A DNA stretch of 60,950 bases from Alphaproteobacteria bacterium (lineage in GTDB: Bacteria > Pseudomonadota > Alphaproteobacteria > SP197). The translations under genes were made by a program, and so were the position numbers. The notes under the pieces are model-generated. The model was given only the letters and a program-made list of their open reading frames with translations, ran no database searches and was not told where the DNA came from. This document shows, piece after piece, positions 35,083 to 56,916 of this stretch. Location of the stretch: NCBI GenBank assembly GCA_028277285.1, contig JANQGO010000162.1, positions 1 to 60,950 of the forward strand, written 5' to 3'. The number at the start of each line of letters is the position of its first letter. Within the stretch, counting starts at the first letter, position 1.

Positions 35083-35792
35083 TAACGGTCAAACGCGCGA
35101 TGGTCCTGGCGGCAGGGCGCGGCGTGCGCCTGAAACCCGTGACCGATACGACACCCAAGCCGCTGGTCGAGGTCGCCGGGCGAACCCTGCTCGACCGCGC
35201 CCTCGATCGCTTCGCAGCGATGGAACTGGTGGTCGTCAACGCCCATCACCTGGCCGGTCAGGTGGCGGCAAGCCTGCAGCGACGGGCGCAACCGCCGAGC
35301 AGGTTGTCGCGTGAAACCGAACTGTTGGACACCGGCTTGGGTGTCAAGAACGCGCTTGGCCATTTGGGGCCGTGGCCCTTCTTTATCTCCAGCAGCGACA
35401 TTCTGATGACCGAAGGCCCGGGCGGTGACCCGCTGCAACGCCTGGCCGCCGCCTGGGATGATGACGCCATGGACGCGCTCTTGCTGGTGCAGCCGCGCGC
35501 CAAGGCCGGCGGTTTCGTCGCGCCCGGCGATTTCAATCTCGACCCCGAAGGCCGGCCAAGCCGCCGCGGCGATGCGCCTGCCGCCGACTACGTCTACACC
35601 AGTACGCAGTTGGTGCATCCGCGTCTCTTCGCCGACAGTCCCGACGCACCGTTTTCGTTCAATCTTCTTTGGGACAAGGCGATCGCCACCCGCCGCCTCT
35701 TCGCCATCGTGCACGATGGCGGCTGGTTCACTGTTGATACGCCGGAGAACCTGACCGCCGCGCCAGACTGGCTCGCACGCCATGGCGGCTAA
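35079..35792 (+). CDS. murU: nucleotidyltransferase, MurU-like (MurNAc-1-P uridylyltransferase)
   Basis: Trimmed to MITVKRAMVLAAGRGVRLKPVTDTTPKPLV, the sugar-nucleotidyltransferase G-loop. It has an ATGA overlap with amgK. Confidence 0.78.
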   Translation: MITVKRAMVLAAGRGVRLKPVTDTTPKPLVEVAGRTLLDRALDRFAAMELVVVNAHHLAGQVAASLQRRAQPPSRLSRETELLDTGLGVKNALGHLGPWPFFISSSDILMTEGPGGDPLQRLAAAWDDDAMDALLLVQPRAKAGGFVAPGDFNLDPEGRPSRRGDAPAADYVYTSTQLVHPRLFADSPDAPFSFNLLWDKAIATRRLFAIVHDGGWFTVDTPENLTAAPDWLARHGG

Positions 35793-38700
35793 GCTCTTCA
35801 CGATCGCGCCGGGCACGTCGTTCGTCGATGCGCTCGCAGCCGGTCTCTTGGAGCGGCACCGCGATCAGCCCGAACGGCTCGGCGAGACGCTGATCCTGGT
35901 GCCGACGCGTCGCGCCAGCCGCGCGTTACAGGAAGCCTTTGTGCGCCAAAGCGACGGAGCCGCGCTGATCTTGCCCGCCATGCAGCCGCTCGGTGATGTC
36001 GACGAAGACGACCTGATCGCCGACCTGCTGGAGATGGGCGAAGACGTCATCGACCTGCCGCCGGCCATTCCCATCCTGCAACGCCAGCTCTTGCTGACCT
36101 CCCTGGTGCGCCAGGCCGGCACCCAGGTCGGTGCCGGCAACGACGAACAGGCCGCGCGTCTGGCCCGCGATCTCGCCCATTTGCTCGACGAAGTTGAGAC
36201 GGCGGAGCTCGACTTCGATGCACTCGACGGCCTCGTCGAGGGCGATCTGGCGCGCCACTGGCAGACGACGCTCGCTTTCCTGCGCATCATCACCGAACAA
36301 TGGCCGCGGATTCTGCAGGAACGTGGTCTTGTCGATCCGGCGCAACGGCGCAGCGCCCTGATCGACGCGTTGGCCGCGCGCTGGACGCAGCAGCCGCCGG
36401 CGACACCGGTGATCGCCGCGGGCTCGACCGGCACCATACCGGCAACGGCACGTCTGATGGCAACCATCTTGGATCTACCCGAAGGCGCGGTGATCCTGCC
36501 CGGCCTCGACCGGCATCTTGCCGAGGACACCTGGGACGCCATCGACGACACCCATCCGCAGGCCGCGATCAAGGCGCTGCTCGGTCAACTCGACACGTCC
36601 CCCGCGGACGTCGCCGATTGGCCCTACCCCGATACGGCCGGGGTACCGCGCGGCGATGCGGGCCGTCAGGTCTTGCTGTCGGATGCCATGCTGCCGGCGG
36701 TGGCGACGACCGCGTGGCAGCGCCTGGACCCCGCCGCTGACAGCGTGTTTGACGGCCTGAACCTGATCGTCTGCGCGCACCAGCGCGAGGAGGCGCAGGT
36801 CGCCGCGCTCATCATGCGCCACGCCCTGCTGACGCCGGCCAAGACCGCCGCGCTGGTCACGCGCGATCGTGGCGTGGCACGCCGTGTGGCGGCGGAGCTG
36901 AAGCGCTGGGGGATCGAGGTCGACGATTCCGCCGGCATGCCGCTCGCCGAAAGCGTGCCCGGCACCTTCCTGCGCCTGATCGCCGAGGTCGCGGTCGAAC
37001 GCGCCGCGCCGATACCGCTGTTGGCGCTCTTGAAACACCCGCTTGCCGCACTCGGCCGCGAGCCCGCGCACCTGCGCACCCAGATCCGCCAGATCGAACG
37101 GCTGGCCCTGCGCGGCCCGCGGCCGGGCTCCGGCTTGTCCGGACTGCGCGACGCGCTGACCCGCCGGCCGGTCGATGCCGACCTCGTCGCCCTGATCGAC
37201 GACATGGCGGAAGCCTTCACGCCGCTCGAGGCCGCGCTCGCCAACCGCCGGGGTTCGCTGCGCGACATGGTCAAGGCCCACATCGCCTGCGCCGAGCGTC
37301 TGGCGACACGCGACAACGAGACCGGCGCTGCGGTGTTGTGGTCGGGCGACGCCGGTGAGGCAGCCCACCGGTTCGTCCAGGAACTGCTGGATCAGGCGGA
37401 CATTCTGACCGGGGCCGAGGGCAACACCTATGCCGGCCTCTTCACCACCTTGATGCAGGGCCATGTGGTCCGGCCCCGCTTCGGGCGTCACCCCCGGCTA
37501 TACATCTGGGGGCCGCTCGAGGCGCGCATGCAGCACGCCGACCTCGTCCTGATCGGCGGATTGAGCGAAGGCAGCTGGCCGCCCGAGGTTCCGGCCGATC
37601 CCTGGATGAGCCGGCCGATGCGCGCGGCCTTCGGCCTGCCGTCTCAGGAACGGCGGATCGGACAGGCGGCGCACGACTTTGCCCAGGCCGCGGCCGGCGC
37701 CGAGGTCGTGATGCTGCGTTCCGACAAGGTCGCCGGCTCGCCCGCGGTTCCCGCGCGCTGGTTGATGCGTCTGGAGACCCTGTTGGACGCCTGGGGCAAA
37801 CGCCACCTGCTGGATCACGACGCCGGCCTGTGGCGCGCCCGCGCCGCGCTGATCGACCGTCCCGCCCTGATCGAACCCGCCAAGCCGCCGCAGCCGGCGC
37901 CGCCGGTCGCCGACCGGCCACGCCGCCTTTCCGTCACCCAAGTCGATACCTGGCTGCGCGATCCATATGCGATCTACGCCCGGTTCGTGCTGGGACTGAA
38001 GGCGCTCGACCCGCTGGACGAGGACCCGGCCGCCGCCGAGCGCGGCACCTTCGTCCACGAGGCGCTCGACCGCTTCGTCAAGACCTGGCCGGACACCCTG
38101 CCCGACGACGCGCTCGAGCAATTGTTGGCGATCGGCCGCGACGTGCTCGGCCCGACGCTCAGCCAACCGGCGGTCGCCGGATTCTGGTGGCCGCGGTTCG
38201 AACGGGCCGCCGCCTGGTTCATCGAACGCGAACACGAACGCCGCCACGAGCTCACCGCCATCGTGACGGAGTCGAAAGCGGAACTCAGTCTCGACGCGCC
38301 AGCCGGCCCGTTCACCCTCTCCGCCAAGGCCGACCGCCTGGAGCGGCGCGCCGACGGCACGGTCGGCGTCATCGACTACAAGACCGGCACCGCGCCCAGC
38401 ACGACGTTACTCAAGGCGGGCGGCGCGCCGCAACTGCCGCTGGAGGCGGCGATGATCCGCGAGGGCGCGTTCGACGCGCTGCCGGAACGCACCATCGCCG
38501 CGCTTGAACACTGGCAGCTCCAGGGCGGCGACCCGCCGGGTCAGATCAAGCGGCTCGCCGGCTCCGACGCCGACGACCTGGCGGCGGAGTCCCTGGCCAA
38601 CCTGAGCGACCTCGTGGCGGCCTTCGACCGGGCAGAGACCGCCTATCTCGATCACCCCGACGGCGCCGACGCCAGGGCCTATGACGACTATCTGCTGGTC

Positions 38701-41700
38701 GCGCGCACGGACGAACATCGCTTGGGCGCTGAATCGGCGCTGCCCGATTTGGAGGTCGCGCCACCGACGCGCGAGGGTGTTTCGCTGATGCCGGCCGACG
38801 ACGTGCAGAGGCTCTTGTCGGACCCCGAAACATCCGTCTGGGTGGCGGCCTCGGCGGGCACCGGCAAGACCAAGGTGCTGACCGATCGCGTGCTGCGGCT
38901 GTTGCTGAAGGGCGTCGCGGCCGACCGCATCCTCTGTCTGACGTTCACCCGCGCGGCGGCGGCGGAAATGGCCGTGCGCATCCAGCGTTCCCTTGGCGCC
39001 TGGGCTATGCTTAACGAGCCCGACCTCGCGACCGCGCTCGAAGGCCTGACCGGCCGGCCGCCGGATGAGGAAACTCTGATCCGCGCGCGCACCCTGTTTG
39101 CCGCGACGCTCGACACGCCGGGCGGCCTTCAGATCGCCACCATCCACGCCTTCTGCCAGTCGCTCCTGGGCCGGTTCCCGTTGGAGGCGCGCGTCGCGCC
39201 GCACTTCGACCTGGCCGATGAACGCACGGCGGCGGAACTGCTGCGCGATGCCCGCGACCGCGTGTTGTCGTCGGTCGCCCGAGGCGGCGGCGATGCGTTG
39301 ACCGACGCGCTCGCCGTTGTCGCCGCCAATGCCGCCGAAGGCACGTTCGATTCGATCATCCAAGAGATCTGCGGCGGCGCCGGACGCTTCGATGCGAACC
39401 TTGCGCGCCATGGCGGTCTCGACGGCACGCTGGATGCGGTCGCCAATGCGTTGGGGATCGCGCGCGGTGTCAATGCAGAGCATGTCCTGCGCCAAGCCGC
39501 GACCTCGGGCGCGCTCGACGAGCCCGGCCTGCGTCAAGCGGTCGCTGCCATGGAAGGCGGCAAGACCACGGACAAGAAAGCGGCGGCGTCGATCGATACG
39601 TGGCTGGCGGGCGATGATGACGCCCGCGTTGCCGGGTTCGCCGACTATTGCCTTGCCTTTCTGACCAAGGAAGGGTCGCCCCGCGCCAACCTGCCGACCA
39701 AGGACGTCGCCGCAGCCTTACCGGCAGCCGCCAGGGCGTTCGCGAACGAGCAGGCACGGCTGATCGGCATTACGGATACGCTCAAGGCCGTGCACGTCTT
39801 CGAACGCACCGCCGCTGTCCTGAGGCTGGGCCACGCCGTGCTGCAACGGTTCCGCGACAACAAGACACGCCGCGCCCTGCTTGACTATGACGATCTGATC
39901 AACCAGACGAACGCGTTGTTGGCCCAGCCGGACATCACGCCGTGGGTGCTCTACAAACTCGACGGCGGTATCGATCACGTGATGGTCGACGAAGCCCAGG
40001 ACACCAGCCCGGCGCAGTGGCAGATCGTCATCGAACTGGTGCGCGAGTTCTTCGAGGGCGAGACATGGGACGACGACATTCGGACCCTGTTCGTCGTCGG
40101 CGACGAGAAACAATCGATCTTCAGTTTCCAGGGAGCGGACCTCGACGCCCTGCGCAACGTGCACGACCGGCTGGAGGCGCTGGCCACGGGCGAACAGGGC
40201 CGCTGGCGCGAAGACGATCTGAACCGTTCTTTCCGTTCGGTGTCGGCCGTGTTGACCGTGGTCGACAAGGTCTTCGAACAGACGAACGCGCGCGCCGGCG
40301 TTGTCGACGATGGCGCCATGCTGGAGCACCTGGTGCAGCGCGCCGGCCATGGCGGCCTGGTCGAGCTGTGGCCGGTGGTCGGGGATCTCGACGACGAGGC
40401 GCCCGATCCCTGGCAGGCACCGCTCGGCTATCACGAGCCGGAAGACCGCAGCACGCGGCTTGCGCGCGAAATCGCCGCGACGATCTATAGTTGGATCGAA
40501 CGCGACGAGTTGCTGGTTTCCAAGGGCAGGCCGATCACGGCCGGCGACATCATGGTGCTGGTGCCGCGACGCACGCGTTTTGTCCACGCGCTCGTGCGCG
40601 AGCTCAAACAGAAGAACGTGGCGGTCGCCGGTGTCGACCGCATGGACCTGACCGGCCAGATCGCCGTGCGCGATCTGATGATGCTGGGTTACGCCTGCCT
40701 TATGCCCGAGGACGATCTGGCCCTGGCCGCCGTGCTCAAAGGTCCGCTGGCGGATTTCGACGACGACCTGCTCTATGACCTCGCCCGCAACCGGCAGGGC
40801 TGGACGCGCGACGGGCGCGGCGACGAACCGCTCGAAAGCCTGTGGTCGGCCTTGCGAAAGCGCGCGAACGACGATCCCGCGTTTCGCGCCGCCCATGATT
40901 GGTTCGCGAGCCAACTGGCTCAGGCCGACTTCGAGCGGCCGTTCGAGTTCTATAGCCGCATCCTGTCGCAGACCTGTCCGGCACCACGTGGCGACATGGT
41001 GGGACCACGGCTGAGCGGGCGCGAGGCGATGTTGCGCCGCCTTGGCATCGAAGCCGAGGACCCGCTCGACGAGTTTCTCGCCGCGAGCCTGGACTATGAG
41101 CGCGAGCATGCGGCGTCACTGCAAGGTTTCCTCGCCTGGCTCGAGGCCGGCAGCGCGGAAATCAAGCGCGAGATGGAAGCCCGTCACGACATGGTGCGCA
41201 TCATGACCGTGCACGGCGCCAAGGGTCTGCAGGCGCCGATCGTCTTTCTGGTCGACGACATGGCGACCCGGCCGCCACGCACCGACAACCTCGTCTGGCT
41301 CGACGGCGGTCAGCTGCCGATCTGGCCCGGCAGCGCGGGCAAGCGCGACCGCGTGTCCGATGAGGCCATCGAGGATCGCAACGCGCGCCAGGACGAGGAG
41401 CGCCGCCGGCTTCTCTACGTCGCTCTGACGCGCGCCGAAGACCGGCTTTATGTCACAGCGGCCTCCAGCACCGGCGAGAGCAAGGCCGAAAGTTGGCACG
41501 GCATGGTCGAGGCAGGCATGGCGGAGATCGCCGAGCCCTTCGACTTCGAAGCCGCCAGCGATCCCGCATGGAAAGGGCAGGCGCTGCGTTATCAGACCCC
41601 GCAGGCAGCAGTCGCGGCGGCGAAACCAAGCAAGACAGACGACGGTGACATCGCCGCGAAACTGGAAGCCGAGCTCCTTGAGATCCCCCCGGTCGAACGG

Positions 41701-42276
41701 GACACGGAGCGTCCGGTCAATCCGTCGCGCCTGGGCGGCAACGACCGCGCTCCGGATTCGCCGTTGGGCAAGTCCGGTGGCAAGGCCGCGGCACGCGGCC
41801 GCGTCATCCATCGCCTGCTGGAACGCCTGCCGGATGTTCCACCGGACGGGCGCGCGATTGCCGGTCAACGCCTGCTCGACCACGTGGCGCATGATTGGCC
41901 GGCGGCAGACAAAGCCGAGGCGCTCGTCTCGGTCATGGCGATCCTGGACGATCCTGCGTTCGGCGCCCTTTTCGGACCCGGCAGCCGGGCCGAGGTGCCG
42001 ATCATCGGGCGGGTCGGCGAGTTGGTTATCGCGGGTCAGGTGGACCGCCTGATCGTCGGTGACGGCATGGTTGATATTGTCGACTACAAAACCAACCGTA
42101 CGCCGCCAGAGGAAGCACGAGCGGCGCCCGAGGCCTATTTGCGCCAAATGGCCGCTTATCGGGCCGTTTTGCGCCAGATTTACCCGGATTTTGTGGTGAA
42201 TTGCCTGCTTTTGTGGACGGCCGGACCGGTTATGCAGACGCTTCCACAAGACCTTCTGGATGCATATGCGCCATGA
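35782..42276 (+). CDS. addB-addA: double-strand break repair AddB and AddA modules encoded as one continuous 2164-codon ORF
   Basis: Residues 1 to ~1000 are alphaproteobacterial-type AddB (MAAKLFTIAPGTSFVDALA...; nuclease motif GVIDYKTGTAPS). From ~1003 onward it is AddA: UvrD-type Walker A AASAGTGKTKVLT, ..VDEAQDTSP.., ..MTVHGAKGLQAP.. and the C-terminal nuclease DIVDYKTNR. There is no in-frame stop at the junction. An internal ATG at 38788 with GAGGG upstream could start AddA separately. Confidence 0.85.
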   Translation: MAAKLFTIAPGTSFVDALAAGLLERHRDQPERLGETLILVPTRRASRALQEAFVRQSDGAALILPAMQPLGDVDEDDLIADLLEMGEDVIDLPPAIPILQRQLLLTSLVRQAGTQVGAGNDEQAARLARDLAHLLDEVETAELDFDALDGLVEGDLARHWQTTLAFLRIITEQWPRILQERGLVDPAQRRSALIDALAARWTQQPPATPVIAAGSTGTIPATARLMATILDLPEGAVILPGLDRHLAEDTWDAIDDTHPQAAIKALLGQLDTSPADVADWPYPDTAGVPRGDAGRQVLLSDAMLPAVATTAWQRLDPAADSVFDGLNLIVCAHQREEAQVAALIMRHALLTPAKTAALVTRDRGVARRVAAELKRWGIEVDDSAGMPLAESVPGTFLRLIAEVAVERAAPIPLLALLKHPLAALGREPAHLRTQIRQIERLALRGPRPGSGLSGLRDALTRRPVDADLVALIDDMAEAFTPLEAALANRRGSLRDMVKAHIACAERLATRDNETGAAVLWSGDAGEAAHRFVQELLDQADILTGAEGNTYAGLFTTLMQGHVVRPRFGRHPRLYIWGPLEARMQHADLVLIGGLSEGSWPPEVPADPWMSRPMRAAFGLPSQERRIGQAAHDFAQAAAGAEVVMLRSDKVAGSPAVPARWLMRLETLLDAWGKRHLLDHDAGLWRARAALIDRPALIEPAKPPQPAPPVADRPRRLSVTQVDTWLRDPYAIYARFVLGLKALDPLDEDPAAAERGTFVHEALDRFVKTWPDTLPDDALEQLLAIGRDVLGPTLSQPAVAGFWWPRFERAAAWFIEREHERRHELTAIVTESKAELSLDAPAGPFTLSAKADRLERRADGTVGVIDYKTGTAPSTTLLKAGGAPQLPLEAAMIREGAFDALPERTIAALEHWQLQGGDPPGQIKRLAGSDADDLAAESLANLSDLVAAFDRAETAYLDHPDGADARAYDDYLLVARTDEHRLGAESALPDLEVAPPTREGVSLMPADDVQRLLSDPETSVWVAASAGTGKTKVLTDRVLRLLLKGVAADRILCLTFTRAAAAEMAVRIQRSLGAWAMLNEPDLATALEGLTGRPPDEETLIRARTLFAATLDTPGGLQIATIHAFCQSLLGRFPLEARVAPHFDLADERTAAELLRDARDRVLSSVARGGGDALTDALAVVAANAAEGTFDSIIQEICGGAGRFDANLARHGGLDGTLDAVANALGIARGVNAEHVLRQAATSGALDEPGLRQAVAAMEGGKTTDKKAAASIDTWLAGDDDARVAGFADYCLAFLTKEGSPRANLPTKDVAAALPAAARAFANEQARLIGITDTLKAVHVFERTAAVLRLGHAVLQRFRDNKTRRALLDYDDLINQTNALLAQPDITPWVLYKLDGGIDHVMVDEAQDTSPAQWQIVIELVREFFEGETWDDDIRTLFVVGDEKQSIFSFQGADLDALRNVHDRLEALATGEQGRWREDDLNRSFRSVSAVLTVVDKVFEQTNARAGVVDDGAMLEHLVQRAGHGGLVELWPVVGDLDDEAPDPWQAPLGYHEPEDRSTRLAREIAATIYSWIERDELLVSKGRPITAGDIMVLVPRRTRFVHALVRELKQKNVAVAGVDRMDLTGQIAVRDLMMLGYACLMPEDDLALAAVLKGPLADFDDDLLYDLARNRQGWTRDGRGDEPLESLWSALRKRANDDPAFRAAHDWFASQLAQADFERPFEFYSRILSQTCPAPRGDMVGPRLSGREAMLRRLGIEAEDPLDEFLAASLDYEREHAASLQGFLAWLEAGSAEIKREMEARHDMVRIMTVHGAKGLQAPIVFLVDDMATRPPRTDNLVWLDGGQLPIWPGSAGKRDRVSDEAIEDRNARQDEERRRLLYVALTRAEDRLYVTAASSTGESKAESWHGMVEAGMAEIAEPFDFEAASDPAWKGQALRYQTPQAAVAAAKPSKTDDGDIAAKLEAELLEIPPVERDTERPVNPSRLGGNDRAPDSPLGKSGGKAAARGRVIHRLLERLPDVPPDGRAIAGQRLLDHVAHDWPAADKAEALVSVMAILDDPAFGALFGPGSRAEVPIIGRVGELVIAGQVDRLIVGDGMVDIVDYKTNRTPPEEARAAPEAYLRQMAAYRAVLRQIYPDFVVNCLLLWTAGPVMQTLPQDLLDAYAP

Positions 42277-49641: not shown

Positions 49642-50477
49642 GACCGCGCCTCCCGGACGCCCTTGGCCAATGCGCGCGTCAGATCGAGAACGCCGTCGAC
49701 GCAAGCCTGGGATGGCGACCCGTCCGCCGTAAAGCCGTCCGCCACTTCCTGGCAGAAGGCACTGCCGACCACGGCAGCATCGGCAACACGCGCGACATCA
49801 GCGGCATCGTCCGGCGTCTTGATGCCGAACCCGACGGCAACCGGCAGGTCGGTGTGGCGTTTCAGCCGTTCGACAGCCGCCTTGGTATCGGCGGTCGCCG
49901 CCCCCGCCGCGCCGGTGATGCCGGCGATGGCGACGTAATAGACGAATCCGGAGGTGTTCATCAGCACCTGGGGCAGACGTTTGTCATCGGTCGTCGGCGT
50001 CGCCAGGCGGATCCAGTTGAGACCGGCGTCGAGAGCGGGCAGGCACAGCTCCCCATCCTCTTCCGGCGGCAGATCGACGATGATCAGCGCGTCGACCCCG
50101 GCGTCGCGGGCGTCCTTCAGGAACGCTTCGTTGCCGTAGCTGTAGATGGGGTTGTAGTAGCCCATCAAAACGACCGGCGTCGCGTCGTCGCGCTCGCGCA
50201 GTTCGCGCACCAGGGCAAGCGTCTTCTTCAGCGTCGTCCCCGCCTTCAGCGAACGCTGGCCCGCGGTCTGGATGGTCGGGCCGTCAGCCATGGGATCGGT
50301 GAACGGCATGCCGAACTCGATGAAATCGGCGCCGGCCTCGGGCAGGCCCAGCAGGATCTCCCGCGACAGCTCGTAGTTCGGGTCGCCCGCCATGACATAG
50401 GTCACCAGGCCGGCGCGTCCCTCCTCGGCCAGCGCGGCGAAACGAGCGTCGATGCGCCCCGCGCCGTTGGCGCTCAT
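49638..50477 (-). CDS. trpA: tryptophan synthase alpha chain
   Basis: Trimmed to [13 protein letters not shown].. It reads ..[22 protein letters not shown].. and ..[13 protein letters not shown].. It has ATGA overlaps on both sides. Confidence 0.95.
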
Positions 50478-51688
50478 AGCTTCACCCCCAGCACATCGGC
50501 GACGGCGAAGACGTCCTTGTCGCCGCGCCCGCACATGTTCATGACGATCAGGTGGTCACTGGGCAGGTCCGGCGCGATTTTCATGACATGGGCCAGTGCG
50601 TGGGACGGCTCCAGCGCCGGGATGATGCCTTCCAGGCTACAACAGAGCTGAAACGCCTCCAGCGCCTCGTCGTCGGTCGCCGACACGTAATTGACCCGGC
50701 CGGCTTCGGCGAGCCAGGCGTGTTCCGGTCCGATGCCCGGATAGTCCAGGCCCGCCGAGATCGAGTGCGGCTCGATGATCTGTCCGTCGTCGTCCTGCAG
50801 CAGATAGGTGCGGTTGCCGTGCAGCACGCCGGGCCTGCCGCCGGTGATCGATGCCGCGTGCTCTCCGGTCTCCAGACCGTGACCCGCCGCCTCGACGCCG
50901 TAGATCGTGACATCCGTATCATCCAGGAACGGGTGGAACAGGCCCATGGCGTTCGACCCGCCGCCGATGCACGCGACCAGGGTGTCGGGACCGCGTCCTT
51001 CGGCCTCGATCATCTGTTCGCGCGTCTCCCGGCCGATGACCGACTGGAAATCGCGCACCAGTTCCGGATAGGGGTGCGGGCCGGCGACCGTGCCGATGAT
51101 GTAGAACGTCGTCTCCACGTTGGTGACCCAGTCGCGCAGGGCCTCGTTCAGCGCATCCTTCAACGTGTGCGAGCCGGACGTCACCGGAATGACCTCGGCA
51201 CCCAGCAGTTTCATGCGGAAGACGTTGGGCGCCTGGCGTTCGATGTCCTTGGCGCCCATGTAGACGACGCAAGGCAGGCCCACCTTGGCGCACACCGTCG
51301 CGGTGGCGACGCCGTGCTGGCCGGCGCCGGTCTCCGCGATGATGCGCCGCTTGCCCATGCGCTGGGCGAGCAGGATCTGGCCGACCGTGTTGTTGATCTT
51401 GTGCGAGCCCGTGTGATTGAGCTCGTCGCGCTTGAAGTAGATCTTGGCGCCGCCCAGATGCTCGGTCAGCCGCTCGGCAAAGTACATGGGGCTCGGACGC
51501 CCGACATAGTGCTTGGCCCAGTGATCGAGTTCGGCCTGAAAGCTGGGGTCGTTCTTGGCCTCGTTCCAGGCCTTCTCCAGGTCCAGAATCAGAGGCATCA
51601 GCGTTTCGGCCACATAGCGCCCGCCGAACATGCCGAAATGGCCCTGCTCGTCCGGTCCGCTACGGTACGTGTTCACCGGTTCCATCAT
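50474..51688 (-). CDS. trpB: tryptophan synthase beta chain
   Basis: Trimmed to [30 protein letters not shown] (AAGGA RBS). It has the PLP site [11 protein letters not shown] and GGGSNAMG. Confidence 0.96.
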
Positions 51689-52013
51689 GTGTCCTTTTTG
51701 TTCAGGAGCCAGGAACATGCCGTTTTCCGCCCGCCTCTGCAACGCCAGAACGCCACATATGATCGCTGGCGGCACGCGTGTCCGCCATAAACGCGACAAC
51801 CCGTTTTTCGCCAGACGTTACGCAGATCGCATCCGACTGCTAATGCTCTGTTTTCAAACGACTTTACGCCTTCAACGCTGTCTTTTCGGCCACAAGTCTC
51901 CCCTCCGGTTAAGACTGATCGGAAGAAATTTTCGCGGCCCAGGGAAGAAAACCGCGACCGGCGCGTTGTCATGGCGGGAAGGGAGTTCATCAGAAACGAA
52001 AGGATGCATTGAG

Positions 52014-52391
52014 ATGACCAGAACTCGCCAAAAAGACACCGGCAACACAGAAGAGGTCTCGCTGGCACGCCGTACTGCCCTGCGACGCCTCGGACTGGCG
52101 CTGGCCGTCGGCTATGCCGCGCCAACCCTCATGACTCTCAGCGAGGCCCGCGCCAGCGGTGGTGGCTCTGGCGGCGGTGGCGGTGGTTCCGGCGGCGGCG
52201 GCGGTGGACGCGGCGGCAGTGGCGGCGGTTCCGGCGGCAGTGGTGGCGGCTCGGGCGGCGGCAGCGGTGGCGGCTCCCGAGGCGGATCCAAGGGTGGCAG
52301 CCGTGGCGGTTCGCGAGGCGGATCCAAGGGCGGCAGCCGTGGCGGTTCGCGAGGCGCCTCGCGCGGTACCAGCTACGGCCCCTCTCACTGA
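52014..52391 (+). CDS. secreted(?) Gly/Ser/Arg-repeat protein with twin-arginine-like signal/leader (candidate modified-peptide precursor)
   Basis: Inner part of track ORF 51630..52391, with the ATG at 52014 preceded by AAGGA. The translation is MTRTRQKDTGNTEEVSLARRTALRRLGLALAVGYAAPTLMTLSEARA / SGGGSGGGGGGSGG...GGSRGGSKGGSRGGSRGGSKGGSRGGSRGASRGTSYGPSH. The leader has an RR motif, a hydrophobic core and an A-x-A site. The remainder is low complexity. Confidence 0.6.
   Translation: MTRTRQKDTGNTEEVSLARRTALRRLGLALAVGYAAPTLMTLSEARASGGGSGGGGGGSGGGGGGRGGSGGGSGGSGGGSGGGSGGGSRGGSKGGSRGGSRGGSKGGSRGGSRGASRGTSYGPSH
52278..52349 (+). repeat. 36-bp in-frame tandem duplication (RGGSKGGSRGGS x2) within a longer GGN-rich repeat tract (about 52140-52380)
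   Basis: Unit 52278-52313 differs from unit 52314-52349 at 1 of 36 positions. Confidence 0.9.
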
Positions 52392-52414
52392 CGTCCAGCG
52401 ATCCCATGACAGGA

Positions 52415-52449
52415 GCCCGCCGGCCGGTCCTCAACCCCGGCCGGCGGGC
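52415..52449 (+). promoter_or_regulatory. perfect 13-bp GC-rich intercistronic stem-loop
   Basis: gcccgccggccgg (52415-52427) pairs with ccggccggcgggc (52437-52449) across a 9-nt loop. It lies 24 nt after the repeat-protein stop and 5 nt before the downstream ATG. There is no U-tract. Confidence 0.7.
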
Positions 52450-52454
52450 ACGTC

Positions 52455-53726
52455 ATGGAACCTGCCAAGAGGGAGATTTGCGTTTTGCAGCACAACCCAG
52501 CAGACAGGACGTTCGTTCGGTTCGGTCGCCTCGCGCGGCCTGTTGCCTTTGTCGGCTGCCACCACCTGACCCATGATCTTCCTGATTACTTTCGCGGATG
52601 GTCGATCGCACAGGTTTCGGGGCAAGCGGTGCCGGATCCCATCATCACCGTCGCCAGGACGGCACGAGGCTACAGCCTGACCGCGTCGTGGCTGGATGAG
52701 CCGCTTCAGCGTCGCGATGAGGTCGACTGTGTTTGCGCCCTCATTGCCGAACTTGTCCGTGCCAGCGTCGACAGCGATCCCGGAAGCCTGTGCCTTCATG
52801 CCGCCGCGGCGCGGATTGCCGGGCATCTGGTCGTGTTCCCCAATCGGTACCGAGCCGGCAAGTCGCTGCTTTCCGCATGCCTGGCGGCGCACGGCGCACG
52901 CCTTCTCGCCGACGATGTGGTGCCGCTTGGGGCTCAAGACGGCCATGCCCTGGCGTCAGGTATCTTGCCCCGCCTTCGCCTGCCGCTGCCGGACAATCTC
53001 GAGCGGCGCACGCGGGCCTTTATCGCGCGCCATCGTGGACCCAGGAACGACCACTACGCCTATCTGGACCTGCCGCCCAGCCGTCTTGCGCCCCGCGGCG
53101 AAAGTGCGGCGATCGACGGCATCGTCCTGCTCGATCGACGGGACGGCGGTGCTGCCAGCTTGGAGGCAATCGGACAAAGCGAAGCTCTGCGTCAGATCAT
53201 TCTACAGAATTTCGCCCGCGAGCCTGACGCCGGGCAGATCCTGGAGCGGCTGCAGCGGATCGTCGGCCAAGCGACGTGCCACCGCTTGACCTATGCTCGC
53301 GCCGATGACGCCGCACGGCTGCTCCTCGACATCTTTTCTCAACCCGCCGCGGCGTCAGAGCAGGCACCGACGCCCGCGCAGGCCCGATCGATCGGCACAA
53401 CCGTTGACGTTGGGGCCGGGCGTGGCAGCTTCGTTCGCCGCGACGGCTTGCGTGAGACCCACATTGACGGCGAACACTATCTGGCGGACGCCCGGAACGG
53501 CGCGATCCACCACCTCGATCCGATCGCGACCGCCATCTGGCGGCTTCTGGACGAAGCGACCGGCGAAGACGAGGTCGTCGCGGCCCTTACCGACGCCTTT
53601 CCTGGCGTGCCCGGCGAAACCGTAGCCCGCGATGTCGCGGCGCTGCTCGACGACCTTCGCCAACGCGACCTGATCGTTGCCATGGACGAGAACGTCGATG
53701 CGCATTGCCGCAGCTTGCGACCTTAG
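52455..53726 (+). CDS. HprK-related kinase-like domain fused to a C-terminal PqqD-family (RRE-type) domain
   Basis: 423 aa. LCLHAAAARIAGHLVVFPNRYRAGKSLLSACLAAHGARLLADDVVPL resembles the HAxxV...GxSGxGKS(T)L...G..L..DD core of HPr-kinase-related kinases, and GKS is retained at residues 135-137. The C-terminus HYLADARNGAIHHLDPIATAIWRLLDEATGEDEVVAALTDAFPGVPGETVARDVAALLDDLRQRDLIV fits the PqqD pattern (LN..a..iW.l.dG..t..ei...l......e...Dv..fl..L...gli). Confidence 0.65.
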   Translation: MEPAKREICVLQHNPADRTFVRFGRLARPVAFVGCHHLTHDLPDYFRGWSIAQVSGQAVPDPIITVARTARGYSLTASWLDEPLQRRDEVDCVCALIAELVRASVDSDPGSLCLHAAAARIAGHLVVFPNRYRAGKSLLSACLAAHGARLLADDVVPLGAQDGHALASGILPRLRLPLPDNLERRTRAFIARHRGPRNDHYAYLDLPPSRLAPRGESAAIDGIVLLDRRDGGAASLEAIGQSEALRQIILQNFAREPDAGQILERLQRIVGQATCHRLTYARADDAARLLLDIFSQPAAASEQAPTPAQARSIGTTVDVGAGRGSFVRRDGLRETHIDGEHYLADARNGAIHHLDPIATAIWRLLDEATGEDEVVAALTDAFPGVPGETVARDVAALLDDLRQRDLIVAMDENVDAHCRSLRP

Positions 53727-54568
53727 CCGCGTTTTCGCGCCAGAATCTCGACCGGAACGGTGCGCCCTTCGGCAACCGCACGTGAGGAGTTGGCCATCAT
53801 GACGGCCGCTCCCTCGCCATGGATCAGGGGAACCGAGCGGTGCGGCGGCTTTTCGCCGCGTTCAACAAGCGCCTTGGAACGTGCCCCGAAATCTTTGGAT
53901 TCGGCGGCCGTGTCACGGACCTGGACGATCAGGAATCCGGCGGCTTCCAGGCCGGACCGGGTCGCCTCCACGCTCGTCAGAAAGTTTGTCTCGGCCGTCT
54001 GTGCCCAAGGCAGCGGGTAATCCGGCTCCGGGCCGTCGCCGCGCGCGAACTCCGACAAGACCAGCCGGGCACCTGGTTTCAGGACCCGCGCGAACTCGGC
54101 GTAGAGGCCGTCCTTGTCGGCGATGTTCATCGAGACGTTCATGGTGTAGGCGGCATCGAACGTGCCGTCGGCGAACGGCATCGCCAGCGCGTCGCCGACC
54201 TCGAACGACACGCGGTCGTCCAAACCGAGCAGCGTTGTGAGCGAGCGCGCGACCTCGCAGAACACCGGCGTCAGATCGACACCCGTTACCCGGCAACCGA
54301 ACCGGTCGGCCACGTAACGCGCCGGCCCGCCGATACCGCTGCCGACATCCAGGACATGGTCGGAGGCGAGGAGCGACAGCAGGTTGGCGACATCCTCGGT
54401 CGCCTCAAGCCCACGACCGTGAAACTGGTCATAGGGCGCAAGTGCGGCGATGGTCGGCCGGTCCGGGTCGGCGCCGTCATCCCGCAATGCCGCCGCCAGC
54501 CGGTCGAAGAGATCGCCGCTGGTGTAGTGGCTTGTGACGTCTTTGCTCATGGCGAGAACGTCATACAA
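53723..54568 (-). CDS. class I SAM-dependent methyltransferase
   Basis: 281 aa. It has motif I VLDVGSGIGGPARYVA and post-I CRVTGVDLT, followed by ..FDAAYTMNVSMNI.. It is convergent with the kinase-like gene, and the stop codons overlap (53723-53726). Confidence 0.85.
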   Translation of the reverse strand: MYDVLAMSKDVTSHYTSGDLFDRLAAALRDDGADPDRPTIAALAPYDQFHGRGLEATEDVANLLSLLASDHVLDVGSGIGGPARYVADRFGCRVTGVDLTPVFCEVARSLTTLLGLDDRVSFEVGDALAMPFADGTFDAAYTMNVSMNIADKDGLYAEFARVLKPGARLVLSEFARGDGPEPDYPLPWAQTAETNFLTSVEATRSGLEAAGFLIVQVRDTAAESKDFGARSKALVERGEKPPHRSVPLIHGEGAAVMMANSSRAVAEGRTVPVEILARKRG

Positions 54569-54956
54569 ATCAATTGCTCCGAAAACCCCAAAAGCTGTTC
54601 CTTCGATGAATCCTAGGTACCAGCGCTAATCCGACATAACTCGATATTTTGGTGCATCACGCTCTGGCTAGAATGACCAACAGGCCCCGTGGCACGAGCT
54701 CCTTTAACCCAGGAAGTGTTCGATCAGTCGAACAGCCGGCAGCTTTCAGGCGGACCAAGCCAAAGGCTTCTAATCACGCGCCATCTAGACCACGACAGAT
54801 TTGACGCACCCACTGGACCTTCCGCCAAGCCTAAGCGTAACATTAGTTATTGAACCATCGAGTGTAGTAGGTCTGGCGTGAGTATGAATTTGCGAGAATT
54901 ACTTGAACGAGTCGCCATTCGATAGCTTTGCTTACACCATTTGAGAGGGGGATCAG

Positions 54957-55121
54957 ATGCGGAATTGGTCTCGAAGCAGATTTTTTGGCCTGATTGCAGC
55001 AATAGCGCTGAGCTTCGCAGTTTCTTCTTGTGACGATGACGGATCGGGAGACTCGGGCTCGTCCGACGAAGTGCTACAATTAGATGGTGGCCATGGAACT
55101 GGAGGTGGCAGTGGTGATTAG
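54957..55121 (+). CDS. putative 54-aa acidic mini-lipoprotein
   Basis: Not in the ORF track (under 60 aa). A strong RBS (GAGGGGG) lies 7 nt upstream. The translation is MRNWSRSRFFGLIAAIALSFAVSSC/DDDGSGDSGSSDEVLQLDGGHGTGGGSGD, i.e. a positive n-region, a hydrophobic core, the lipobox VSSC, and a D/G/S-rich mature part. Its stop is 6 nt before the next ATG. Confidence 0.5.
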   Translation: MRNWSRSRFFGLIAAIALSFAVSSCDDDGSGDSGSSDEVLQLDGGHGTGGGSGD

Positions 55122-55127
55122 AGTTAG

Positions 55128-56129
55128 ATGAAGTTACCGCTTACATTCGGAAACAGGCTGCTTTTAAGGTTCTTGTTACCGGGGGCTATAGTAGCCACTG
55201 GCTTAAGTCCACTTCTACACCTTCTCGCTGGAAGATTAAATGTTCCAGTCGATAGTTTATACTTGTTTCCTGCAACAACATTGATTTCCGGTTGGATACT
55301 CTCTCTATTTGATATGCCGATTTACATGATCATGGAAGGCCGCGCTCTTTGGCCTAAGTGGCTGAAAGAACGATGCATGAAAACACAAAGAAAAAAGCTA
55401 GATAGATGGATTTCCAAGGCTCGCAATTACGAGAAAAATGGCAATGAAGCTGAAGCAACCGAGATGGAAGTCAAAGCATACCGATATCCTATAGGTAATG
55501 GAAAATACAATTCAAACTCCGGCGTTCCTACAGTCGTATTGCCTACTGAACTTGGCAATGTAATCTACGGATATGAAACTTACTCGATGGTCAAGTACGG
55601 CGCAGATGGAGTTTTCTTCTGGGAGCGCATTTGGATGGGCTTGGACGCGGACCTCAGAAGGGAAATAGATGAGAGACAAGCAATTTGCGACAGCGCTGTT
55701 TACTCAAGCTTCTCCTGCTTTGTTAATACTATTCTTTTCTTGATTTTCTCAATTTTTCTTATGTTGTCATCTATTTTCAGTTTGGATTTGGCGAGCAATC
55801 TCACGGCCTGGCAGCGCGCCGTGGAGTTTTTGGTCGTGTCGCTGTTCTTTCTTGTTCTTTGGGGGGTGTTCTATCGAGCTGCAGTCAGCACAAACTTCCA
55901 ATTCGGAGAACGCTTGAAGGCTATGTTTGATTCTAATCTTGATAAGCTGGCGATAAGCGATGCATTACTTATGGTTAGCAAGCGAACGGGTGCCATATAC
56001 ACGACTACGTCCTTCGATCCTGACAATGTAATGGCAGCGTGGAGATACCTTCGTTGGCACAAATTCCGCCCACCTCAGGCCAAGTCGAACATAAATATTG
56101 AACACGCGAAAAAACAAAACAATAAATGA
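55128..56129 (+). CDS. hypothetical 4-TM membrane protein
   Basis: 333 aa in a ~40% GC islet (two spot-counted lines gave 38-40%). It has two N-terminal TM helices, a ~130-aa soluble loop (..PTELGNVIYGYETYSMVKYGADGVFFWERIW..), two more TM helices and a basic C-terminal tail. No domain was recognised. Confidence 0.65.
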   Translation: MKLPLTFGNRLLLRFLLPGAIVATGLSPLLHLLAGRLNVPVDSLYLFPATTLISGWILSLFDMPIYMIMEGRALWPKWLKERCMKTQRKKLDRWISKARNYEKNGNEAEATEMEVKAYRYPIGNGKYNSNSGVPTVVLPTELGNVIYGYETYSMVKYGADGVFFWERIWMGLDADLRREIDERQAICDSAVYSSFSCFVNTILFLIFSIFLMLSSIFSLDLASNLTAWQRAVEFLVVSLFFLVLWGVFYRAAVSTNFQFGERLKAMFDSNLDKLAISDALLMVSKRTGAIYTTTSFDPDNVMAAWRYLRWHKFRPPQAKSNINIEHAKKQNNK

Positions 56130-56274
56130 GTTAAGTTCCTATCCGAAAAAAAAACAATGCGGAATGCGTTGGCCATGAATGCGAGTATTCCAATAGTTCA
56201 ACATTTGGAGCACCAATTCAAGGTTCACGATTCTTCATGGCCTTGTCCAAAATTTCTTTGCTATCGTGTTCAGC

Positions 56275-56916
56275 TTACAGTCTTCGCACTTTGTCCAGGA
56301 AGATTCTGACTTTCTCTGGGTCCTTGACGCCGGGCGCGGACTCGACGCCGCTCGACACGTCGACGCAGCGCGCGCCCGTCAGGTTCACGGCCTCAGCCAC
56401 ATTCTCGGGGTCCAGGCCACCCGCCAGCATCCACGGCCTCCTGAAGCTGCGCCCCGCCATAAGCCGCCAATCGAAGGCGATCGCGTTTCCGCCCGGCAGG
56501 GTCGCGCCCTTGGGCGGTTTGGTATCGAACATCAACCATTCGGCCACCGGTTCGTAACCGGCCACGGCCTCCAGGTCGTCGGCCTCGCTGACCTTGATCA
56601 CCTTCATGATATCGACGCCGAAACGCGTCCGGATATCGGCGGCGCGCTCGGGCGCTTCCTGCCCGTGGAGCTGCACCATCGACAAACCAGCGGCCGCGAT
56701 GGCGCCTTCCAGCAGCATGTCGTCGGGATCGACAAAGACACCGACCTTGCCGACGGCGCCAGGCACGCGGGCGGCGAGCGCGCGCGCCTCCTCCATGCTC
56801 ACGAAGCGTGGGCTCTTCTCAAAGAAGTTGAGGCCGACGAAGCGCGCGCGATGGGCGACCGCCGCGTCCAAGGCTTCGGCACTCGTGATGCCGCAGATCT
56901 TTGTATCAACCGCCAT
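56275..56916 (-). CDS. trpF: phosphoribosylanthranilate isomerase
   Basis: 213 aa. It reads MAVDTKICGITSAE.., ..VQLHG.. and ..AGGLDPENVAEAV....GVDVSSGVE. Confidence 0.94.
   Translation of the reverse strand: MAVDTKICGITSAEALDAAVAHRARFVGLNFFEKSPRFVSMEEARALAARVPGAVGKVGVFVDPDDMLLEGAIAAAGLSMVQLHGQEAPERAADIRTRFGVDIMKVIKVSEADDLEAVAGYEPVAEWLMFDTKPPKGATLPGGNAIAFDWRLMAGRSFRRPWMLAGGLDPENVAEAVNLTGARCVDVSSGVESAPGVKDPEKVRIFLDKVRRL

Follow-up and report, generated by a model that had tools for sequence, protein, structure and literature searches.

A predicted HprK-like kinase–PqqD fusion protein is encoded next to a serine-rich protein with a conserved, export-signal-like head in many proteobacteria

Described systems related to the locus

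Modification guided by a RiPP recognition element (RRE) is known from small natural-product pathways. The closest described relatives of the gene pair examined here are the lasso-peptide precursor kinases that act together with a discrete RRE, namely BsfK and BsfB1 of Bradymonas sediminis, along with the paeninodin-cluster kinase, ThcoK, SyanK and the pseudomycoidin kinase. BsfK is an HprK-type P-loop kinase that phosphorylates Ser3 of its linear ribosomal precursor, and this reaction is strongly accelerated by BsfB1 both in vivo and in vitro (PMC10368454). The conserved leader element of lasso precursors is a YxxPxL motif (PMC6784204; PMC10368454). The characterised lasso kinases are regioselective, modifying Ser3 in the case of BsfK and the C-terminal Ser in the case of the paeninodin-type (Firmicutes) and proteobacterial kinases, although the proteobacterial lasso kinases add several phosphates. 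In lasso clusters a K (kinase) gene is often accompanied by an N gene, which adds hexoses to the phosphate.

Three further systems are relevant for comparison. The NCBIfam HPr-rel-A system comprises HprK-related kinase A (TIGR04352) and a PqqD family peptide chaperone (TIGR04353), and is not mentioned by any paper in the literature library we searched. HPr kinase/phosphorylase (HprK/P) and ATP-dependent PEP carboxykinase share a P-loop fold. Finally, Tat-leader-binding chaperones (REMPs such as TorD, DmsD and NapD) offer a functional analogy, since these cytoplasmic proteins bind a specific twin-arginine signal peptide and hold the substrate until a cytoplasmic maturation step, cofactor insertion, is finished.

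A conserved gene pair and its genomic neighborhood

We analysed a 60,950-nt stretch of alphaproteobacterial DNA (the window), for which the initial annotation had described a peptide with a twin-arginine-like head and a Gly/Ser/Arg tail, followed by a perfect 13-bp hairpin and by a gene fusing an HprK-like kinase to a PqqD domain. This observation is confirmed, and all of the described features are present (Table 1). The peptide reads MTRTRQKDTGNTEEVSLARRTALRRLGLALAVGYAAPTLMTLSEARA followed by SGGGSGG...SRGTSYGPSH. Three small corrections are needed. The annotation counted more than 20 Ser in the tail, which is a slight overstatement, as the tail has 18 and the whole peptide 20; the hairpin has a second, lower stem that buries the start codon of the fusion gene; and a gene caller elsewhere started the same protein (entry P0001) at an alternative TTG codon, giving 413 aa, so the start codon is not settled.

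Table 1. Features of the gene pair, with positions in the 60,950-nt window
Position	Strand	Feature	Evidence
52001..52004	+	Shine-Dalgarno-like AGGA (within AAGGA), 9 nt before the ATG of the peptide gene	Read directly from the sequence
52014..52391	+	Presumed substrate (precursor) gene, ATG 52014, stop 52389-52391: 125 aa, with a conserved 47-aa head and a 78-aa Gly/Ser/Arg/Lys tail	Head HMM 57 bits, E 4e-16
52068..52073	+	Twin arginine (R19 R20) of the head	Invariant columns in both head alignments
52113..52130	+	Y34-A-A-P37-T-L39, a YxxPxL motif and presumed RRE-binding element	P invariant, Y at least 90% conserved, last position mostly L, with V, M, F or T also seen
52146..52154	+	A45-R-A47, AxA motif (signal-peptidase-type site) at the head-tail boundary	A small-x-small AxA ends nearly all heads; cleavage is inferred, not shown
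52155..52388	+	Low-complexity tail of 78 aa with GGS and (R/K)GGS units, presumed phospho-acceptor region	46 Gly, 18 Ser, 1 Thr, 9 Arg/Lys; nucleotide repeats
52404..52458	+	Intergenic stem-loop: perfect 13-bp GC stem (52415-52427 / 52437-52449, 9-nt loop) on a 7-bp lower stem (52404-52410 / 52452-52458) that includes the ATG at 52455	-47.2 kcal/mol, z = -5.3; 0 of 200 shuffles fold as well
52455..53726	+	423-aa HprK-like kinase::PqqD (RRE) fusion; alternative start TTG 52485	Family of 328 representatives at E<=1e-30 among 50%-identity clusters
52503..53342	+	Kinase-like module (about residues 17-296): N-terminal beta domain plus P-loop domain	TIGR04352 at residues 111-290, E 5.7e-12; Foldseek to PEPCK, E 5e-6, and HprK/P, E 7e-5 to 9e-4; hhalign to BsfK, E 1.2e-12; full-length orthology to stand-alone 286-298-aa kinases, E 4e-53
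52797..52916	+	Catalytic motif block: H115, P-loop F128-PNRYRAGKS-137 (NRYRAGKS at residues 130-137), D153-D154	H115, G135, K136, S137, D153 and D154 invariant in 70 sequences
53343..53429	+	Flexible interdomain linker (about residues 297-325)	pLDDT about 67 over residues 300-320; variable and gapped in the alignment
53472..53675	+	PqqD/RRE domain (Pfam match at residues 340-407)	PF05402, E 6.4e-16, 58.9 bits (cutoff 23.4); PDB profile search to TbiB1, E 3.4e-10; Foldseek to TbiB1 (5v1v/5v1u), TM 0.83-0.84, rmsd 1.4-1.7 A, 31% identity; hhalign to BsfB1, E 3.2e-9
53723..54568		Methyltransferase gene, convergent	

In order to determine whether the association of the two genes is conserved, which the initial annotation had named in advance as a point on which its idea could fail, we examined the neighborhoods of homologs of the fusion gene. 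(An alignment of 21 homologs lacked a conserved block, and the profile scan was made with 8 sequences.) In 30 of 38 genome loci a gene encoding the same head (RR..L.RLG....YxxPxL....AxA) and a Ser/Thr-rich tail lies directly upstream on the same strand, and in most of the remaining loci it is nearby or the locus is cut by a contig end. The adjacency is therefore not due to chance. The head is conserved across Alpha- and Gammaproteobacteria, in sequence and in its position next to homologs of the fusion gene, and a head HMM hits the six-frame translation of the window exactly once, at the peptide ORF, so that this ORF is not a chance frame in GC-rich DNA.

The head-bearing gene is the only gene family shared across the loci; no further family is shared by more than 8 of them, although ECF sigma/anti-sigma genes occur in at least 10 loci, which is among the support for export. 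In the window, the pair is flanked by trpB, trpA, accD and folC on one side and by a methyltransferase, an unknown ORF, trpF and pyrF on the other, with no cyclase, protease or transporter nearby. A tblastn search with BsfB2 found no B2-like leader peptidase in the window or in 49 loci, and no cyclase-like or ABC-exporter family is shared among the loci, although the cyclase was not searched with its own model. By these searches the locus lacks the gene content of a lasso-peptide cluster, and the peptide lacks the properties of a lasso precursor: heads end in AxA with R, H, K or Q at position -2, where lasso precursors have Thr or Ile, and the tail in the window has no Asp or Glu at all, whereas the 7-9-residue ring-forming core of a lasso precursor has Gly, Ala, Ser or Cys at position 1 and Asp or Glu at position 7-9. 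The convergent methyltransferase is not supported as part of the system, since it resembles the TPR-methyltransferases of related loci only generically (33% over 108 aa) and recurs next to the fusion gene in no other locus. A search with defense-system models gave no hit for the fusion or for the low-GC ORF, and only a generic methyltransferase-domain hit (mad2) for this neighboring gene.

Strong, near-perfect hairpins occupy the same intergenic position in most of 31 loci examined, with no sequence conservation, and some are followed by T-runs. The hairpin in the window gave only a sub-threshold match to a known RNA element (PtaRNA1, 21.8 against 47 bits). A scan for sigma-70 promoters and intrinsic terminators gave nothing above background, and a pattern scan upstream of the peptide genes revealed no consistent ECF-type promoter.

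The same kinase also occurs unfused, next to an 89-aa PqqD protein and the same kind of substrate gene. These split orthologs are always paired with a PF14907 nucleotidyltransferase, whereas no PF14907 homolog is present in the window or in any of the 38 fused loci. No additional domain was found in longer members of the fusion family (entries P0252, P0271 and P0313), which are probably gene-calling artefacts.

Predicted folds, catalytic residues and substrate heads

Support for the kinase and PqqD folds was the other computational test named by the initial annotation, and both folds are supported (Table 1). The AlphaFold2 model of the fusion protein has a pLDDT of 91.4, its N-terminal part matching PEPCK/HprK-P and its C-terminal part, in keeping with the winged-helix fold with a three-stranded sheet of PqqD domains, the lasso RRE TbiB1. 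Comparison by hhalign links the two halves to BsfK (97.8% probability) and BsfB1 (96.1%). By contrast, sequence similarity to HprK chains in the PDB is marginal (E 0.005-0.04), and the protein differs from HprK in its extra N-terminal beta domain and its RRE; its substrate is not HPr. TIGR04352 is the best NCBIfam match for the kinase part, and TIGR04353 is the third match for the PqqD part, after NF033530 (lasso_PqqD_Strm), but the scores are far below the curated cutoffs (45.3 against 200 bits and 27.5 against 35 bits). The split orthologs, which have the HPr-rel-A gene order of kinase followed by small PqqD, also score only 33-53 bits. Membership in the HPr-rel-A families was thus rejected on score, and these proteins form a separate, diverged clade.

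The residues used for phosphotransfer in HprK and BsfK are retained, with spacing identical to that of BsfK H148, K169-S170 and D186-D187 (PMC10368454), and 226 of 228 family members with a recognizable P-loop keep GK[ST]...DD. The P-loop itself is unusual, as the initial annotation noted when it called activity uncertain, having NRYRAGKS where GxSGxGKS was expected. It lacks two of the three Gly residues of GxxGxGKS (these are N130 and R133 here and are replaced throughout the family), and N takes the place of the first Walker-A [AG], so catalysis could be altered. The sequence agrees with the BsfK-type motif H-x14-G-x2-G-x-G-K-S-x15-D-D in its remaining positions and spacing, which does not settle whether it should be counted as an instance of that motif. 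However, FP[NS]xxRAGKS is conserved across the family, FPNRYRAGKS being its commonest variant, indicating that the atypical P-loop is the family consensus and not a sign of decay.

The head combines two kinds of feature. It carries the lasso-type YxxPxL motif, and it has the anatomy of a twin-arginine (Tat) signal peptide, with R19-R20, an 18-residue uncharged stretch (L26-S43) and an AxA site. The initial annotation had offered a Tat signal as an alternative to a leader, but this is probably not an either/or choice. Curated Tat-signal models (TIGR01409, PF10518) do not recognize the peptide in the window, and related heads give only sub-threshold hits (TIGR02811, 14-25 bits against 48; TIGR01409, 13 against 16.7), although these models are short and insensitive. 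The same head, with a Ser-rich segment, precedes S8 protease, PepSY and dihaem cytochrome c domains in related loci, which is indirect evidence for export; one partner protein is a c-type cytochrome whose head lacks RR, which would require Sec rather than Tat. The head is not exclusive to kinase systems, as very similar heads occur on small Cys-containing proteins that sit next to a TPR-methyltransferase or next to no modifying enzyme at all. In a chimeric AlphaFold2 model, in which enzyme and peptide were joined in one chain, the enzyme part was unchanged and the head was placed only at low confidence (pLDDT 49-60, with a 3-residue strand at L39-T41); together with the conserved YxxPxL, which fits lasso-type recognition, this leaves leader binding by the PqqD domain undecided.

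In terms of composition, the tails are otherwise unrelated. Across 25 loci only their Ser/Thr richness is conserved (18-52%, mean 30%, median 21 Ser+Thr per tail), while Gly ranges from 2 to 68% and net charge varies. Ser-rich low-complexity sequence is, however, also what a passive linker looks like.

A possible leader-guided phosphorylation module and alternative readings

The initial annotation proposed leader-guided, possibly multi-site Ser phosphorylation, and our comparative and structural results support this interpretation. We consider it somewhat more likely than not that the locus is a two-gene, leader-guided protein-phosphorylation module. Each step of this model is inferred rather than shown, binding from homology in particular, and export is the more speculative part; neither phosphorylation nor binding nor export has been measured. 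In this view, the small gene would be expressed well above the enzyme gene, as the hairpin would attenuate read-through and bury the enzyme's start codon. In the cytoplasm, the PqqD domain would bind the YxxPxL segment of the head, as lasso B1 proteins bind their leaders, and the head would stay tethered while the tail reaches the P-loop domain, which would transfer phosphate from ATP or another NTP to Ser (or Thr) hydroxyls, probably at several sites. After modification the protein would probably be exported and the head removed, releasing a disordered, phosphorylated Gly/Ser-rich polypeptide into the envelope. Given the heads that precede folded domains, the enzyme probably serves a small family of exported proteins and not only a free peptide.

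We found no description of this pair. The initial annotation held that it fits no known RiPP class, but it is not without relatives, and is a fused, stand-alone derivative of the lasso kinase and B1 pair. It differs from BsfK/BsfB1 in that kinase and RRE form one polypeptide, in its P-loop, in the signal-peptide anatomy of the head, and in that the substrate has no lasso core but a Ser-rich low-complexity tail of 30-150 aa or a folded passenger domain. It differs from the REMPs in fold (a PqqD winged helix rather than an all-helical protein) and in that the maturation step would be phosphorylation, and Tat dependence is not shown. Here the logic of RRE-guided modification appears detached from any natural-product scaffold and applied to long disordered tails and to linkers of exported enzymes. 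If confirmed, the system would add a stand-alone RRE-guided kinase for making secreted, multiply phosphorylated proteins, for which the nearest eukaryotic analogy is casein- or SIBLING-type proteins made by secretory-pathway kinases, and it would show a signal peptide being read by an RRE, linking protein export with RiPP-type leader recognition. The family is large and occurs in cultured marine and soil strains, in which it can be tested directly (Litoreibacter arenae DSM 19593, Yoonia sp. R78084, Mesorhizobium sp. KR9-304, Seohaeicola saemankumensis, Ruegeria arenilitoris, Aliiroseovarius sp. S253 and Halomonas pelophila). The fused kinase-RRE is also a compact candidate tool for leader-directed peptide phosphorylation.

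The data leave room for a more far-reaching scenario, which we put forward only tentatively, in which a signal peptide doubles as a RiPP-style leader. The enzyme would grip the h-region (YxxPxL) of a twin-arginine-type signal peptide, load the following disordered segment with many phosphates and only then release it for export. This would create a family of bacterial secreted poly-phosphoserine proteins, comprising free tails and linker-bearing S8 protease, PepSY and cytochrome proteins, with a sister branch handled by TPR-methyltransferases.

Among the alternatives, it is possible, though less likely, that the enzymology is the same but that a single defined site is phosphorylated, either a Ser just after the head, as with BsfK, or a C-terminal Ser, as with the paeninodin-type kinases, the tail being only a spacer. 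This would agree with the regioselectivity of characterised lasso kinases, with the Ser that follows AxA in about two thirds of heads, and with some split-system substrates that end in ...KKS. On the other hand, no single Ser position after the head is invariant, the peptide in the window ends in ...GPSH, the one property conserved among the tails is a high Ser/Thr count, and proteobacterial lasso kinases already add several phosphates.

It seems unlikely that the fusion protein is instead a signal-peptide-binding export chaperone or proofreading factor, with its P-loop domain acting as an NTPase switch, no covalent modification being added and the peptide being simply an exported disordered protein. 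The Tat-like head, the extracytoplasmic domains that follow it, the non-canonical P-loop and the existence of dedicated Tat-leader chaperones (TorD/DmsD) are consistent with this reading, but the invariant phosphotransfer residues and the peptide kinase activity of the closest characterised homolog argue against it, and the conserved Ser/Thr richness of the tails would be left unexplained. Less likely still, phosphorylation might be only an intermediate, with the phospho-Ser being further decorated (by glycosyl or nucleotidyl transfer, as in pseudomycoidin) or eliminated to dehydroalanine by an enzyme encoded elsewhere. The nucleotidyltransferase of the split orthologs and the N genes of lasso clusters would suggest this, but PF14907 is absent from the fused loci and nothing else is conserved next to the fused gene.

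That the pair is a decaying remnant of a lasso-peptide cluster, with a pseudokinase and a relic precursor, or that the peptide ORF is a chance frame, is effectively refuted by the comparative data in spite of the atypical P-loop and the absence of cluster genes nearby, as the family has hundreds of diverged members with invariant catalytic residues and a conserved head, and, with no B2-like sequence found by tblastn with BsfB2 in any locus and no cyclase-like family shared among the loci, its architecture is the norm and not a local loss.

The peptide gene and the predicted kinase-PqqD fusion protein

The initial annotation had described a Gly/Ser/Arg-rich, leader-bearing peptide followed by a hairpin and a gene for an HprK-like kinase fused to a PqqD domain, and the sequence does show this arrangement. 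The first gene encodes 125 aa, composed of a 47-aa head (...SLARRTALRRLGLALAVGYAAPTLMTLSEARA) and a 78-aa tail with 46 Gly, 18 Ser, 1 Thr and 9 Arg/Lys, which is built from 9-15-nt GGS-type units and ends in SRGTSYGPSH. The perfect 13-bp GC hairpin that follows has a folding energy of -47.2 kcal/mol (z = -5.3) and sits on a lower stem that pairs CCATGAC with GTCATGG, and so includes the start codon of the fusion gene. The fusion protein is 423 aa long, although a gene caller elsewhere started the identical protein (P0001) at a downstream TTG, giving 413 aa.

Coordinates of features in the window and in related loci (L numbers denote individual loci holding relatives of the fusion gene or of the head)
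Feature	Sequence	Position	Strand
Peptide gene, ATG to stop	window	52014-52391	
Perfect 13-bp hairpin	window	52415-52449	
Kinase-PqqD fusion gene (ATG)	window	52455-53726	
Alternative TTG start	window	52485	
Class-I SAM methyltransferase, 281 aa	window	53723-54568	-
Low-GC island	window	54600-56250	
Predicted membrane protein, 333 aa	window	55128-56129	+
trpB	window	50474-51799	-
trpF	window	56275-56916	-
Insert between trpB and trpF	window	51800-56274	
PD-(D/E)XK nuclease and UvrD-helicase ORF, 2164 aa	window	35782-42276	+
S8 subtilase with head	L048	862-2376	-
S8 subtilase with head	L036	3963-5456	
S8 subtilase with head	L018	1481-2812	
S8 subtilase with head (inferred)	L044	2607-3905	
Head, Gly/Ser linker and PepSY-like domain	L015	1284-2060	
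Head, Gly/Ser linker and PepSY-like domain	L026	7140-7739	
Head, Gly/Ser linker and PepSY-like domain	L037	7172-7771	
Head-like and dihaem cytochrome c	L023	5345-5890	-
Head-like and dihaem cytochrome c	L024	1049-1738	-
Head-bearing Gly/Ser-rich protein with C-terminal motif	L001-L003, L019	about 8590-9290	
Head-bearing Gly/Ser-rich protein with C-terminal motif	L009	4407-4847	
Sister family of Cys-containing head proteins with TPR-methyltransferase	L039-L043, L047	genes at 6001 or 4001	
Sister family of Cys-containing head proteins with TPR-methyltransferase	L033	4549-5613	
Sister family of Cys-containing head proteins with TPR-methyltransferase	L038	4374-5405	
Substrate gene out of frame in its repeat	L049	4631-4987	

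Whether profile and structure searches would support the two folds had been set in advance as a test of the annotation, and both folds are supported. Pfam identifies PqqD at residues 340-407 (58.9 bits against a cutoff of 23.4), while NCBIfam identifies HprK-related kinase A at residues 111-290 (E 5.7e-12), although at 45 bits this is far below the 200-bit cutoff, as well as lasso-type PqqD chaperones. An AlphaFold2 model built from a 70-sequence alignment is confident (pLDDT 91.4, pTM 0.88), with a softer linker around residues 300-320. Foldseek searches of the PDB match the N-terminal two thirds of this model to ATP-dependent PEP carboxykinase and HprK/P, and its C-terminal domain to TbiB1, the lasso RRE crystallised with its leader (TM 0.83-0.84, rmsd 1.4-1.7 A, 31% identity). 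A sequence profile searched against the PDB agrees (TbiB1 E 3.4e-10, HprK E 0.005).

In order to relate the protein to a characterised system we translated the published genes of BsfK and BsfB1. The HPr-kinase homologue BsfK phosphorylates Ser3 of the lasso precursor BsfA, a reaction greatly accelerated by the discrete RRE BsfB1 both in vivo and in vitro, and its motif is defined as H148-G163-G166-G168-K169-S170-D186-D187 (PMC10368454). The family profile aligns to BsfK with 97.8% probability (E 1.2e-12, 174 columns) and to BsfB1 with 96.1% (E 3.2e-9, 93 columns). In the window protein H115, G135-K136-S137 and D153-D154 are invariant across 70 homologues and keep the BsfK spacing exactly (His to Lys 21, Lys to Asp 17). 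The first two P-loop glycines are replaced by N130 and R133, which leaves agreement with the full BsfK motif undecided; this is not local decay, however, as FP[NS]xxRAGKS is the family consensus, FPNRYRAGKS is its commonest form (37 of 250), and GK[ST]...DD is kept in 226 of 228 members with a recognisable loop.

Relatives of the fusion gene and the head-bearing ORFs beside them

A word-indexed search found 113 relatives, and an exhaustive HMMER search with the kinase part found 1486 representatives at E<=1e-3, 627 at E<=1e-10 and 328 at E<=1e-30. Of the 250 sequences collected, 192 are fused (at least 370 aa) and 41 are stand-alone kinases of 260-330 aa. A scan of one genome per GTDB species gave 38 loci in Alphaproteobacteria and Gammaproteobacteria, the alphaproteobacterial ones coming from Kiloniellales, Rhodospirillales, Hyphomicrobiales and Rhodobacterales. 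The annotation would also have been contradicted if homologues of the fusion were never adjacent to such repeat ORFs, and we therefore ran an HMM of the peptide's head on six-frame translations of these 38 loci, which shows that they usually are.

Position of the head-bearing ORF relative to the fusion gene in 38 loci
Situation	Loci
Ends within about 300 nt upstream, same strand	30
1.5 kb upstream	1
Adjacent, opposite strand	3
Cut by a contig end	3
None found (the kinase gene there looks truncated)	1

The three loci retrieved by protein look-up that hold a fused gene (L044, L048 and L049) show the same arrangement, although in L049 the substrate gene goes out of frame inside its GGGS repeat, unlike its close relative in L048, which is either an assembly slip or repeat-length variation in the low-complexity region. 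All-against-all clustering of the neighbouring ORFs shows that this is the only gene family shared across the loci, and the head HMM hits the whole 60,950-nt window once.

Alignment of 25 heads gives invariant R-R, L(+3), G and P and near-invariant R and Y, with the consensus RRxALxRLGLxxxAAYAAPxLxTLSxAxA, and two readings of this head both fit. In the first it is a RiPP-type leader, as Y34-x-x-P37-x-L39 is the YxxPxL motif conserved in lasso leaders, where it spans -17 to -12 (PMC10368454; also PMC6784204), and the PqqD domain of this enzyme is closest to the lasso B1 proteins. The link between this motif and B1 binding is our inference and is not quoted from those papers, and binding was not assayed, but such sequence conservation inside a hydrophobic region is unusual for a generic signal peptide. 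In the second reading it is a Tat-type signal peptide, as it has RR, an 18-residue uncharged stretch and AxA, and as the same head precedes domains that work outside the cytoplasm, followed where read by a Gly/Ser-rich stretch.

These domains are S8 subtilases, PepSY-like domains in proteins encoded just downstream of the fusion gene, and a dihaem cytochrome c divergent from it, the head of which lacks RR. The subtilase heads were confirmed by sequence in L018, L036 and L048, where the linker reaches about 90 aa in L048, while that of L044 is inferred from 65% identity to L018, including the N-terminus; these proteases may process the substrates or may themselves be substrates. Curated Tat models give only sub-threshold hits for related heads and none for the window peptide. 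Further head-bearing Gly/Ser-rich proteins in five loci end in a conserved C-terminal motif of unknown meaning, S/I-S-x-D-E-E-A-x-x-(I/V)-x-x-G-W(Q).

The tails differ completely between lineages, examples being GGS, SEASM, PS(A/D/E)PS, TSGG, KSNKSG, RPT/RPS and RS-rich repeats. Across 25 fused-type loci Gly ranges from 2 to 68% and net charge runs from acidic to strongly basic, whereas Ser+Thr stays at 18-52% (mean 30%, median 21 residues). Ser/Thr richness is the only shared property, and is what a kinase substrate would conserve, although a passive linker would look similar.

Interpretation and comparison with lasso peptide kinases

The annotation's reading of the pair as a leader-guided, possibly multi-site Ser phosphorylation system is supported by these comparisons, although phosphorylation itself was not measured. 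We consider a signal peptide that is also read by the RRE to be the best synthesis of the two readings of the head, with export unproven. Computation shows both folds, the conserved catalytic residues, homology to an RRE-dependent peptide kinase, fusion and fission with a PqqD protein, near-obligate adjacency to a head-bearing Ser-rich ORF, the YxxPxL motif and the conserved hairpin. That the RRE binds the head and that the kinase phosphorylates tail Ser/Thr, probably at several sites, is inferred; a chimeric AlphaFold2 run left the enzyme unchanged and gave the head only pLDDT 49-60, with a short strand at L39-T41, which does not decide the matter. It is speculative that export follows modification, that the head is then cleaved at AxA and that the product functions in the envelope.

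On this reading the system would work like the lasso K + B1 pair, but it is not a lasso cluster. No B2 was found and no cyclase-like family is shared among the loci, although the cyclase was not searched with its own model, and the system also lacks a ring-forming core and a residue like Thr(-2). On score it is not a member of the curated HPr-rel-A families. Full-text searches, which did not extend to subscription journals, found nothing on HPr-rel-A, TIGR04352/3, or kinase-RRE fusions with Ser-rich substrates, and the RRE-Finder paper mentions no kinase. What is already known is an RRE-dependent peptide kinase within lasso biosynthesis, and what we regard as new is a variant of it, a kinase-RRE fusion paired with a Ser-rich substrate gene outside a lasso cluster.

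Genomic neighborhoods

A strong, near-perfect hairpin lies between the substrate and enzyme genes in most of 31 loci, without sequence conservation and sometimes with a T-run, which is the arrangement expected when the substrate must greatly outnumber the enzyme. Genes for an ECF sigma factor and a zf-HC2-type anti-sigma factor accompany the pair in at least 10 loci (L001-L003, L009, L018, L019, L036, L044, L048 and L049), including the closest relatives of the window enzyme. This hints at envelope-signal-dependent expression, although no shared ECF-type promoter was found by a simple regex. The window contains neither these genes nor a head-bearing S8 protease.

Split orthologues have the order substrate, 286-304-aa kinase, 89-aa PqqD and a convergent PF14907 nucleotidyltransferase, and their kinases are 36-39% identical to the fused N-part (E 4e-53). 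This echoes the K + N genes of phosphoglycosylated lasso peptides, but no PF14907 homologue occurs in the fused loci or in the window. Very similar heads (...AYxAPTxxHLDRSANA) also occur in a large sister family of 55-80-aa proteins with Cys/Lys/Gly tails, which sit beside hldE and an MmcB-like gene and are mostly followed by a TPR + methyltransferase protein of roughly 360 aa. In L033 and L038 that protein, the substrate and the kinase-PqqD gene are contiguous, and this may be a parallel system, a binder fused to an enzyme, acting on the same kind of head.

In the window the pair lies in a 4.4-kb insert between trpB-trpA-accD-folC and trpF-pyrF, and trpB and trpF are usually adjacent in Alphaproteobacteria. 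No protease, cyclase, radical-SAM enzyme or transporter gene is present. The class-I methyltransferase in the insert converges on the fusion gene, the ends overlapping by 4 nt, but it is not conserved next to the fusion elsewhere, so a link to the system is unsupported but not excluded. The predicted membrane protein between the methyltransferase and trpF (ORF GC 42-49%) has no significant match, with nothing in PADLOC and only weak hits (E 0.05 or worse) in Pfam and NCBIfam, and lies in an island of 42-50% GC against about 66% around it that looks horizontally acquired, whereas the kinase/peptide pair has host-like GC. Elsewhere in the window, a single ORF combines PD-(D/E)XK nuclease and UvrD-helicase domains, resembling AddB plus AddA in one frame, and is either a real fusion or the result of a missing stop codon.
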